Below, in pieces: positions 25,329 through 37,810 of a DNA stretch of 64,000 nt. The notes beneath the pieces were generated by a model. It was not told the origin of the DNA. It did no database searches and saw only the letters and a program-made list of their open reading frames with translations. Both the position numbers and the translations under genes were made by a program. Each line of letters starts with the position of its first letter. The first letter of the stretch is position 1. Source of the stretch: Eledone cirrhosa (Eukaryota); assembly GCA_964016885.1 (NCBI GenBank), contig OZ024743.1, positions 181,164,001-181,228,000 of the forward strand, written 5' to 3'.

Positions 25329-25888
25329 GTAGGTAGGTAGGTATGTAGGTAGGTGGGTAGGTAGGTAGGTAGGTAGGTAGGTAGGTAGGTAGGTAGGTAG
25401 GTAGGTAGGTAGGTAAGTAGGTTGGTTGGTAGGTAGGTTGGTAGGTAGATAAGAAGGTAGGTTGGTAGGTAGGTAGGTAGGTAGGTAGGTAGGTAGGTAG
25501 GTAGGTACATAGGTAGGTAGGTAGGTAGGTAGGTAGGTAGGTAGGTAGGTAGGTAGGTACATAGGTAGGTAGGTAGGTAGGTAGGTAGGTAGGTAGGTAG
25601 GTAGGTAGGTAGGTACATAGGTAGGTAGGTACATAGGTAGGTAGGTAGGTAGGTAGGTAGGTAGGTAGGTACGTACGTACGTAGATAGGCGGGTAGGTAG
25701 GTTGGTAGGTACGTAGATAGGTAGGTAGGTAAGTAGGTAGGTAGATATAGAGAGAGAGAGGGGGAGAGAAAGAGAGAGATAGAAAGAGATAGGGAGAAGT
25801 AGAGGTAGATAGATAGATATATAGATAAATAGATAGATAGATAGATAGATAGATAGATATGTTTCTTTATTTAGATAGATAGATACAT
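25329..25888. repeat. (GGTA)n followed by (GA)n and (GATA)n
   Basis: Direct reading. Confidence 0.95.
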
Positions 25889-25959
25889 ACTGCTTTTTGG
25901 AAGAAGGTCAGAAAATGATTGACCTAGCTTTTTCTATGTTATGTGAACTGATAGATATA

Positions 25960-28900
25960 TTTCTTTATTAGCCACAGGGGCACAAAAGAAGGGGACAAAT
26001 ACAAAGGGGGAAGTTTACATACAATAAAAACGTGTAAAATATGATCACAAATGCAATTTAAAAAATTAGTCGATTTTTCCCAATAGGGGGAGACAGTTCA
26101 TATGGGTAACACATGCCCCCGAAAAAATATGCAGCCCTCATCTCCAGGAGTACGAAGAGTTTGTACTCCCTTCCTCTCCTCCTCCTTTTCCTCAACCTAC
26201 AGGCTGATATAGAGAGAAGGCCCATTCACTCGGGCCATTCTCGGCACTTTCACCCACCTTTCATAAAACTTGCTGGGGTACAGCACCTCTCTTTCCATCC
26301 TGATTCTTCTTCCAAAGTGGTATTTGAAAAAAAGAATCAGTTGTTGGCCGGAGAGAAAGGTGTTTGACCTCAGCCCTTTCAGCCTTGTCCACCATACAAC
26401 TTCTTTCGCCATAGCTATCACACAAAGGAAAACCGCCTCTCCTTCGTTTTTGAAGGAGGGTGGCGGTTTGATCATGACAATGGACTCGGTGGTCAACCGG
26501 ATTGGTCCCACCCGCGACAATAGTCGTTCTACATAGCCCCACAGGTCGGTGACGCCCGGGCAGTGTATGAATGCGTGCGCGACGGTTTCTTCGTCTCGCA
26601 CGCACCTTGGACAGATCTTTTTTGTAGGGTCCCTGCCTGGGCGCCCATGTCTGTAGAGCTTGTCTCGAACTGGTAGAGCTCCTCGGTAGCACTGCCAGGC
26701 CAGGGACTTTTGGAAGTTGTCCATCGGTCCCGGGCGGAAGGTCCTACCGAACAGACTGGCCAGTTCATCTTCCTCTACGCCTAGAGTTTCAGCGAGCGCG
26801 TCGTCGCACTTGCTGCGGATCAACCCTCTATAGAATGGCGAAGTGGAGTCTCCACTGATCGCCGGGTCCGCCTGCCAGAGGGCTGTGAGCGCCTGAGCAC
26901 ATTCGATGTGCCAGTCGCCCATTTTCCTCGGTCTCTGCTTGATCCAGGACTGCAGCTCGGTCAGCGAGACGAGTCGTGGGAAGGCGCGCCTCACGAACGG
27001 GGCCCACACCGGTTGTCCGGTGAGGAATACGTAGAGATGCCGCATCTTGAGCGCGTGTTTGCGCATCGTCAACCACGGCATCCCCAGCCCTCCGTTAGAA
27101 GGGTGTTGGCAGCAGATGGATCTTCTCACCAAAGGAGCCCGCCTCGTCCAAAGGAATCAGGAAGAGCGCGCGTTCCATTTTGGTGAGCGTTTTGGTTGGA
27201 CAAGGCACGACGGTCAAGCGGTAGTAGATGGCGGACGCTATAAAAGTGTTCGCGACCTCCGCTCGACCTTTCAAGGATAGTTTTCACTCGGCCCACTTCT
27301 GGGTGAGTGCAAACACCTTGGCCGTCACTTCGTTCCAGTTCTTCTCCACCTGAAGGTCCGGACCAAACCAGACCCCGAGCAGCTTTACCGGTCCTTCCGT
27401 CCAGCGTCCGATGACGTCATCGTGAGGCATCGGTTTGCCTCTCCACGATCCGAGTTGCAAACCGATGGACTTGTCCCGGTTCAGTTTCGCTCCTGTGAAA
27501 CTTTCGTATTGCTTCAGTAAGGTGCCGACTTCCTCGATTTGCGAGGCGTTCGACACCATTACTGTCACGTCGTCGGCGTAGGCCGACGCCGCTTTCCGCA
27601 GTCCCGGTTCCAGAGGGATGCCCTGCAATAGCTCCAACTTCCGCAGTAGTGGCTCGAGAGTCAGTACGTACAGAAGGGAGAAGAGAGGGCATCCCTGTCG
27701 AATGGATCACGTAATATGGAACGGCTCCGAGAGGTAGCCGTTCACCTTGACCCTTGAGCAGATGTTGCTGTTGTGCATTGCAGCAATCCAGCCCCTGAAC
27801 ATGGATCCGAAGCCTGCCGCCTCGAGCACCGCATCCAGGTAACGATAGTCAACACTATCGAAAGCCTTAGACTGATCCAAGTTGATCAGGGCCCCACCGA
27901 AGCCGGGTTTACACCCTACCCTCTCTATGATGTATCGCATGAGGTGGAGGTTGTCGTGTATGGACCTGGTCGGGATTGTGCATGTCTGCGCTTCTCCCAC
28001 CAGGTTCTCGACGACAAGCGACAGCCTCTTTGCCAACACCTCGGCCAAAATCTGTAACTCTGTGTTTAGCAGAGTTATGGGCCGGAAGTTGCCTATGCCA
28101 TCCCCCTTATTCTCGTCCTTCCTGACTAGTGTGACTACGCCTCCGGTCACAGAACTGGGAATTCTCCCGTTCTGTTACCAGTTGCAGTAGACCGCTTCCA
28201 GGAGACCACAGAATAAGTCTGGCATTTCTACATAAAATTCGTAGGATAGACCGTCGAGACCTGGAGATTTGCGTTTGCCGCATTGGCTCAGCGCGTCCCA
28301 TATCTCAGCGGCTGAAATCGGCTTTTCGCAGAATTTTGCCTCTCTGTCCGAGAGTCGCGGTAGGCCGTCGAGGTATGAACCGAAATCCATAGCCCTCACG
28401 GCGCGCCGCCCCGCCCGAACAGTTGAGCAAAGTGCCGCTGAAAGGCCGCACACATCTGCTTCGGCTTACGTATCACGCGTCCGTTTTGGTCCTTCAAAGA
28501 CCGAATCGTGGACTTGTTGTCACTTTTTGCCTCCGTTACTCGGGCCCAGCTAACAGCTTTGGCTCCCTCGTTTCCCAGAACACGTATTTTGCTTCTGACA
28601 ACGTAGCCCTCGTACTTTGCGTCGAAGAACTGGTCCAAGGCCGTTCTCGTTGCTAACACGCTGGCTACGTTGCCACTTCTAATTGCCTCTTCTACTTTAT
28701 CTACCAGTTCATTCTCGGTTCAATTTCTATCTAACGCTAATTATTTACTAAAAACTAACGAGTCTAATCTAACTTCCCTCTTGAGAGAGTACCACCATCT
28801 GTTGTTGACAATGGCCCCTGTCAAGTGCTGTTTAATTAAAGTGCTAATCCGTCTACTGTAGGCTTTGCATGTCGGTAACGACAAGTTTAGCTTCCAGTAG

Positions 28901-37444: not shown

Positions 37445-37662
37445 AATGTAATCAAAATTTTACAATATTTTTTCCAAGATTCGATGGAGAAACATTTTTT
37501 AAATGGATATTCCGCCCCTGTAGGGGTGAAAATGAGTTGACCCATCACCTGAAGGTCCAGACGGGTGGTCAAGTTACACAATGATATAAAATTTAACTAA
37601 AAACTCACGTTTTTTTCTTACATAAATTAACGGAAACTTCTCCGCGAAGTGACACGCGTCTA

Positions 37663-37810
37663 ATAGATAGATAGATAGATAGATAGATAGATAGATAGAT
37701 AGATAGATAGATAGATAGATAGATAGATAGATATAGATAGATAGATAGATAGATAGATAGATAGATAGATAGATAGATAGATAGATAGATAGATAGATAG
37801 ATAGATAGAT
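37663..37810. repeat. (GATA)n microsatellite
   Basis: Direct reading. Confidence 0.95.

Follow-up and report, generated by a model that had tools for sequence, protein, structure and literature searches.

A tandem pair of putative Tx1-type LINEs within a (GATA)n/(TATC)n array of Eledone cirrhosa, one copy intact

When two full-length long interspersed nuclear elements (LINEs) lie head-to-tail inside one tetranucleotide microsatellite, were they inserted there one after the other with the repeat as their target, or was the pair duplicated and the repeat made by the element itself? This question is raised by a 64,000-nucleotide stretch of the Eledone cirrhosa genome (GenBank assembly GCA_964016885.1, contig OZ024743.1, positions 181,164,001 to 181,228,000 of the forward strand), here called the window and numbered from its first base. 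All counts of repeats and copies refer to this one 64-kb window, and the data for the family of the pair, called the TATC family (Tx1B), come from a single locus. A related family in the same window is called the sister family (Tx1A). Tx1A, Tx1B, Dong-like, SINE-like (short interspersed nuclear element) and MITE-like (miniature inverted-repeat transposable element) are labels that we assume for working use and were not taken from a classification.

Both copies of the TATC family are on the minus strand. Copy 2, a young full-length LINE, occupies 31836..37664 (5,829 bp; first non-repeat base 37662) and copy 1, which is dead and a mosaic, occupies 25957..31787 (5,831 bp), in agreement with the original prediction of two full-length copies of ~5.8 kb lying head-to-tail. 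Upstream of copy 2, ~36 TATC units in the sense of the element, with 1 interruption, were found at 37665..37810 (-), preceded by unique DNA that holds no element 3' end. Twelve TATC units separate copy 2 from copy 1 (31788..31835, -). On the far side of copy 1 the order is ~2 TATC units, an exact 60-bp direct duplicate (25890..25949) of 25148..25207, its presumed source, ~4 imperfect units, a stub of ~13 bp that forms a third element-type 3' terminus (25859..25871, -) with TATC units on either side, and ~13 partly degenerate units (25806..25858, -). The predicted (GATA)n was thus present before and between the copies; after them it is interrupted by the duplicate, two units off the 3' end of copy 1. 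The duplicate has clean junctions without microhomology, and would be most readily explained by templated repair after the array had broken. A (GTAG)104 array at 25329-25744 adjoins the locus and has no LINE end inside it.

TATC units adjoin 2/2 5' ends and 3/3 3' termini of the family (5/5 ends, all at one locus), always on the sense strand of the element. All 6 GATA-class runs of at least 3 units in the window (244 bp, 0.4% of its length) lie at the LINE-pair locus, and since they are confined to it the association of element and repeat is not due to chance. The 16-mer terminus pattern occurred 3 times, against 0.01 expected from 100 shuffles. Genomic poly(A) was seen at none of the three 3' termini.

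The favoured explanation, given a probability of about 0.68, is that the element is an autonomous Tx1-type retrotransposon without long terminal repeats (non-LTR), with two open reading frames (ORFs), that inserts into (TATC)n/(GATA)n by target-primed reverse transcription, and that the array was hit sequentially. At least two hits at different times would be needed, an old insertion represented by the 3' 4.2 kb of copy 1 and a young one (copy 2); the number is probably three or four when the donor of the young 5' part of copy 1 and the 13-bp stub are counted. The array upstream of copy 2, the outermost copy on the 5' side, is the longest at the locus; unique DNA without an element terminus precedes it, and it is therefore not a 3' tail.

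Messenger RNA is in general cleaved 10-30 nt past AATAAA. Both families carry AATAAA a few bases before the repeat, without genomic poly(A), so that the cut would fall in the flank and leave an RNA bearing UAUC units. Transcription of the TATC element would run through the AATAAA that stands 7 nt before the element end, and cleavage within the flanking repeat would give an RNA with a few UAUC units. By analogy with Tx1 and R1 elements, the apurinic/apyrimidinic endonuclease (APE) domain would nick the (GATA)n strand, and the GATA 3' end so released may pair with the UAUC units and prime reverse transcription. Insertion would split the array and leave intact target on both sides, where later copies could stack head-to-tail, as in the layout observed. 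Copy 1 may then have arisen from stacked copies by homologous recombination or single-strand annealing.

Alignment of the two copies gave 173 substitutions in 5,802 aligned bases (3.0%; 118 transitions and 55 transversions) and 10 indels, as expected from the predicted abundance of both. In copy 1 the ORF1 equivalent (31567-29672) contains 2 frameshifts, and the ORF2 equivalent (29638-26197) contains 6 in-frame nonsense changes and 4 one-base frameshifts; copy 2 contains 0 nonsense changes. With close relatives as outgroups, 26 derived replacements were placed on copy 1 and 2 on copy 2 (28 of 70 resolved, 42 unresolved; p = 3e-6). With the sister family as outgroup, DNA changes were placed on copy 1 at 70 and on copy 2 at 24 of 94 resolved sites, with 25 unresolved. 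In the 3' 4.2 kb, compared without an outgroup, G or C in copy 2 stood against A or T in copy 1 at 101 sites and the reverse was found at 34 (p = 7e-9). Differences in ORF2 comprised 40 synonymous, 73 replacement and 6 stop changes against 34.9, 76.8 and 4.7 in simulations, which fits neutral decay.

Duplicates of equal age are expected to decay symmetrically, and the decay here is one-sided, so that an old and a young insertion are the better reading. Separate insertion of copy 2 and of the 3' part of copy 1, rather than simple duplication, is thereby supported, as had been proposed. At the rate of 0.0036 per Myr quoted in PMC13282606 the old part of copy 1 would be ~9-10 Myr old, which is no firm date as the synonymous clock is unbalanced. 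APOBEC-like hypermutation of copy 1 was considered and rejected, as the G-to-A changes were context-free (GC 15/252, GG 13/351, GA 11/327, GT 11/218).

Divergence between the copies is not uniform along their length. In the 5' segment of copy 1 (30215..31787, -) 16 of 1,570 sites differ from copy 2 (1.0%), and in the 3' segment (25957..30214, -), which holds all nonsense changes, 157 of 4,232 differ (3.7%). The change-point, with an interval of 30940-29936, had a log-likelihood ratio of 17.6, a value reached in 0/1,000 plain and 0/1,000 context-matched permutations. The first 417 bp of copy 1 are the same as in copy 2; this identity spans the 220-bp 5' untranslated region (UTR) of copy 2 (37445..37664, -; 0 differences) and continues to 37248. 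Differences in the 5' segment were enriched for synonymous changes (9 against 4.5 expected, P = 0.0095), and decay towards A/T was absent there (4 vs 8). From these comparisons copy 1 looks like the 5' part of another active young copy fused to an old 3' part, and recombination within a once longer stack would be the simplest route to the join.

Because the 5' part of copy 1 is younger than its 3' part, the match between the two 5' junctions should count once, and not as two separate pieces of evidence. The original prediction had listed the shared junction ..CTATCTATTAGACGCG among the features seen; it is indeed the same in both copies, and the identity there, 417 bp long, is part of the 5' segment of low divergence. 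CpG decay was rejected as a cause of the mosaic (0/84 vs 30/502 CpG sites; 0/1,000 in the context-matched permutation), and the synonymous excess speaks against the 5' part having been copied directly from copy 2 by conversion. That 5' ends can diverge is seen in the sister-family pair, used as a control, which differs at 14 of its first 249 bases.

Both frames of copy 2 are open at the predicted lengths, 632 and 1,145 aa. ORF2 (32075..35512, -; 1,145 aa) encodes an APE-type endonuclease (EN), a reverse transcriptase (RT) with the motif YADD and a C-terminal CCHC finger; Pfam returned EN, RT and zf-RVT domains, and 14/14 motifs checked were present. At 276 columns that are near-invariant among relatives copy 2 differs at 8, of which 7 are common to copy 1 and 1 is a stop in copy 1, leaving 0 private changes. 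The predicted EN model (predicted local distance difference test, pLDDT, 81) was matched best by L1-EN structures at a template modelling (TM) score of ~0.8. GC content at third codon positions of ORF2 is 0.64, against a flank GC of 0.33-0.35. The 3' UTR (31836..32074, -; 239 bp) ends with AATAAA at 31848-31843 and 7 nt, directly followed by the repeat without genomic poly(A). At the level of sequence, copy 2 is supported as a putatively competent retrotransposon, and the description of it as potentially active can be kept to that extent. No matches were returned by an Rfam scan of 24000-40000, and folding of the UTRs against shuffles gave no extra structure (3' UTR z = +0.35, 5' UTR z = -0.91).

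ORF1 of copy 2 (35546..37444, -; 632 aa) has an Asn/Asp-rich N-terminus, a predicted tandem RRM-like core, a CCHC knuckle and a Pro/Thr-rich C-terminus. Tx1-clade ORF1 proteins carry RRM domains and a CCHC knuckle, and L1-type ORF1 proteins a coiled coil, an RRM and a C-terminal domain (CTD). No Pfam family was matched at E<=0.01, the match to zf-CCHC (E=0.081) being below the cut-off, and 0/7,998 candidates in a homologue search reached E<=0.001. A model built from a 3-sequence alignment (pLDDT 74) matched tandem-RRM chains with a best E of 8.5e-5 and TM scores of just 0.23-0.37 among the matches listed. Atlas scores were 0.92 to CCHC clusters and 0.89 to a ZCCHC3-RBD cluster. A core of tandem RRM domains plus CCHC is weakly predicted from these models.

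The junction of ORF1 and ORF2 in copy 2 (35513..35553, -) carries a splice-donor-like motif, G/GTGAGT, across the ORF1 stop. The form G/GTRAGT was found over the ORF1 stop in copy 2 (35553-35513, -) and in both sister copies (50943-50980, +, and ~23900-23940, +), followed by a pyrimidine tract and then CAACATG; at the site in copy 1 (29679-29639, -) GTGAGT is kept and the preceding G is lost. The motif occurs once in the 5,829 nt of copy 2 and twice in the 5,906 nt of the sister, one of these at the ORF1 stop. It may serve in ORF2 expression or in the binding of U1. A 34-nt micro-intron joining ORF1 to ORF2 was rejected, as the frames do not fuse and the sister family is without the AG.

The sister family is represented by a full-length copy at 48738..54643 (+; 5,906 nt), which lies between (TAT)20 and (ATT)13 and has an open ORF2 of 1,139 aa and a broken ORF1. 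A second copy (21682..24003, +) has a 5' UTR and an open 680-aa ORF1 after (ATT)21, and its 3' part is missing. Between the sister and TATC families ORF2 is 73% identical in DNA and 68.9% in protein (EN 61%, RT 75%), and the ORF1 cores are 32% identical. Sister-family flanks consist of (TAT)20-21 at 2/2 5' ends and (ATT)13 at 1/2 3' ends. Each family keeps to its own repeat, and the presence of the sister family in (TTA)n at 69% ORF2 identity implies a switch of target. A 253-bp MITE-like element with perfect 34-bp terminal inverted repeats (24004-24256) stands at the break of the partial sister copy, and a 5'-truncated sister-like Tx1 3' end (14528-15262, +), 90% identical to the full copy, is fused at a shared AATAAAG to a SINE-like tail.

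Several observations weigh against sequential insertion into a repeat target. Only one target locus is available, with just ~2 TATC units adjoining the 3' end of copy 1, and as the target is periodic the length of a target-site duplication is unreadable. A scan of prokaryotic contigs, uninformative for such an element, gave 10 pattern matches and 0 confirmed copies. One of 2 sister-family 3' ends (~15210) joins a SINE-like repeat, not a microsatellite. The sister-family pair is also uneven, falling from 35 to 3 differences per 250 bp, so patchiness is not unique to the tandem pair. The branch of copy 2 has ~5 synonymous changes above the neutral ORF2 expectation (P = 0.16), fewer than an active lineage should gather in the time that copy 1 took to decay by ~3%; constraint on the GC-rich ORF2 or an assembly effect could explain this. 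In SART1Bm accurate priming is reported to depend on a long poly(A) and not on read-through into the target (PMC7265360). The predicted targeting of a tetranucleotide repeat accordingly stands as a local statement, borne out by the longest array on the 5' side and by the third terminus within the repeat; the word 'specific' reaches beyond one target locus.

What sets the target bears on this reading. In the published view endonuclease specificity is the main determinant (PMC4494074), and swapping the EN alters specificity in SART1/TRAS1 (PMC7265360); pairing of RNA with the target has been named as a possible extra contribution, and a hairpin loop between T192 and S202 of L1 changes nicking (both PMC1950540). 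The counterpart of this loop in the EN of copy 2 is residues 189-199, which vary among close relatives and differ from the sister family at 3/9 inner positions. In the model, residues 190-198 mostly have pLDDT under 50, which makes a structural basis of specificity unreadable. Alternatively, the target in this lineage may be set mainly by the RNA and not by protein, in that each transcript, owing to the terminal AATAAA, takes up a few units of the repeat beside its donor copy, and these pair with a loosely nicked strand and choose the next site. We consider this unlikely, though it would account for the occurrence of two families, 69% identical in ORF2, in (TATC)n and (TTA)n respectively. If it were true, a single stray insertion could give rise to a family whose new target is inherited, and the target would be programmable through the 3' tail.

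Four other explanations were weighed. The repeat could be a tail, made by the element through slippage of the reverse transcriptase as in RTE elements, with only a loose preference for where it lands, be it in earlier tails or in an open hotspot. Such an origin would suit the lack of poly(A), a repeat that begins directly after AATAAAGAAAT at 3/3 termini, a window that is a LINE hotspot (~64% LINE by the listed intervals), and the capacity of RTE elements to generate microsatellites at their 3' ends (PMC2887409). It is made distinctly unlikely by the ~36-unit array upstream of copy 2, before which there is no element terminus, and by the repeat at 2/2 5' ends of the sister family. Insertion might also have shown no sequence preference, with copies retained only in gene-poor, low-recombination DNA rich in repeats. 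Passive accumulation of this kind has been suggested for Waldo-A/B, which lies near CA repeats (PMC3812793), and microsatellites of many kinds do abound in the window. We regard it as the least likely explanation of all, as the junctions are flush with the repeat, in a single orientation and matched to the family (TATC, or TTA in the sister); besides, the window holds many more AT and AC arrays (22 and 10) than AGAT arrays (4), and 0/5 TATC-family ends lie at an AT or AC array.

The adjacency of two full-length copies would also follow from a single insertion that was duplicated in tandem on the spot and later converted by other members of the family. The identity of the first 417 bp has P ~2e-7 at the rate of the 3' part, which favours such a history, while at the rate of the 5' segment its P is ~0.014; given also the one-sided decay in replacements, base composition and nonsense changes and the synonymous enrichment of the 5' differences, we hold this to be very improbable. 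Nearly as improbable is a partial artefact of assembly or polishing, in which copy 2 and the 5' part of copy 1 were made to look consensus-like, young and intact by a switch of haplotype or by reads drawn from collapsed copies. This would account for the near-absence of private changes in copy 2 and for the mosaic boundary, and several of the 7 one- or two-base indels do lie in or beside homopolymer runs. Polishing to one consensus should, however, give identity, and the 5' segments differ at 16 sites with a synonymous excess; young, near-full-length L1-Tx1 elements have also been reported in octopus (421 insertions, 13 families; PMC13282606). Sequential insertion into the repeat is retained as the favoured explanation.

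Other repeats in the window were recorded. Six Dong/R4-like LINEs, all on the minus strand and ending in (TAA)n, lie at 15258-19350, 40887-43173, 44098-48725, 54648-58764, 58899-63521 and 63656-64000. They form two subgroups, with 97-98% identity within one and ~91% otherwise, and are found in arrays that also hold the sister Tx1 family, oriented the opposite way; one ORF of 1,130 aa is open at 59011-62436. A fragment of a LINE with a restriction-like endonuclease (20147-21618, -), 37% identical to the Dong-like ORF, is truncated at (AAT)21 before the partial sister copy. A tandem duplication of ~2.85 kb (95%; 40326-43173 vs 43573-46395) comprises a truncated Dong-like 3' part and an (AAC)-rich satellite. 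SINE-like repeats at 63520-63650, 5264-5365, 6141-6267 and 6338-6454 are 87-97% identical and have a B-box-like motif by eye; the copy at 63.5 kb sits between (TAT)n and (ATT)n. At 7902-10187 there is a degenerate TA-rich minisatellite of ~2.3 kb with 30/43/90-bp units, whose long open frames probably reflect nothing but base composition.

Tx1 families that target tetranucleotides are already known, as are tandem stacks, and for target-specific LINEs there is nothing unusual in a tandem pair of which one copy is intact. A Tx1 family targeting GATA/TATC was absent from the matches listed in the literature searched, which did not cover Repbase or the target lists of PMC4494074, where a GATA-class target may be included; a TTA target for Tx1 was likewise not met in that literature. 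If flanks across the genome confirm the pattern, TATC/GATA, and TTA for the sister, would join the short list of Tx1 microsatellite targets and extend the habit to a cephalopod. The main value of the locus is that two close families with different targets, each with an open ORF2, lie in one window, which makes the question of endonuclease versus RNA tail testable; the choice of microsatellites by APE elements was called 'not well understood' in a 2013 review (PMC3812793). In such genomes, microsatellite markers of the GATA type may turn out to be associated with LINEs.

The element was compared with known systems by ORF2 similarity, RT trees and architecture. The best ORF2 relatives are fragments 60-73% identical; the closest named is from Argonauta hians (66%), in keeping with an octopod host, followed by a group at ~40%. 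The fish protein P0042, with ZCCHC3-type domains, scored 291 bits and human L1 ORF2p 178 bits. In RT trees of 82 and 35 regions copy 2 groups with the sister family and the protein P0001 (support 100), and 3 named plant proteins fall outside the larger group to which it belongs (93), with deeper nodes at 31-78. These trees include no curated Tx1 or animal L1 reference, and two selected rows were dropped from the 82-sequence tree as short matches. The architecture of Tx1 is present (two ORFs, an N-terminal APE domain, RT and a C-terminal CCHC finger), which is common to the L1 clade and so necessary and not sufficient. Architecture and RT tree are consistent with a Tx1-type element, and membership is putative.

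Among other LINE groups, RTE elements are defined by a single ORF, a very short 3' UTR and a repeat only on the 3' side (PMC2887409), whereas the TATC family has two ORFs, a 239-bp 3' UTR and the repeat also 5'. Dong, of the R4 clade with target (TAA)n, is likewise a microsatellite-targeting LINE. R4/Dong elements have a single ORF with a C-terminal restriction-like endonuclease; the TATC family has two ORFs and an N-terminal APE, while the Dong-like elements of the window have a C-terminal restriction-like nuclease (motif by eye), no APE and the opposite orientation in the TAA array. Mammalian L1 is alike in that its ORF2p aligns across EN, linker and RT (the 178 bits above) and has the same EN fold. 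It differs in its use of T-tract/A junctions, as opposed to a repeat; the TATC family is also without the poly(A) of the L1 clade (0/3 termini) and without an L1-type ORF1 match in Pfam (0 families). In the R1 clade, Waldo/Mino, in (ACAY)n and (AC)n, and SART/TRAS, in telomeric repeats, are likewise APE-type and repeat-specific, regenerate their target and can stack. Clade and targets are different, and SART1 has a poly(A) tail, unlike the TATC family.

In Octopus vulgaris 80 L1-Tx1 families have been described, 13 of them recently active, with 421 insertions (PMC13282606). They share with the present element the class label, and recent insertions average ~5.4 kb, as derived from the table of that study; Dong-R4 elements and SINEs accompany them, as they do in the window. 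In the text of PMC13282606 no target analysis was met, and its supplement gave 0 matches for 'target', 'microsatellite' and 'GATA'. A Tx1 family has been counted as target-specific when >20% of its genome-wide copies are flanked by the same target (PMC4494074). Microsatellite targets described for Tx1 are (TC)n for Kibi and (TTC)n for Koshi, both of teleosts, and (TTCC)n/(TTTC)n for crocodilian families (PMC4494074, PMC3812793), and tandem Tx1 insertions have been interpreted as sequential (PMC4494074). Kibi, Koshi and the crocodilian families differ from the pair described here in their vertebrate hosts and in their units of TC, TTC, TTCC or TTTC; the TATC unit contains A, and the sister family uses TTA. 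Like the TATC family, they are APE-type LINEs in a short, pyrimidine-containing microsatellite, which in the crocodilian case is also a tetranucleotide.

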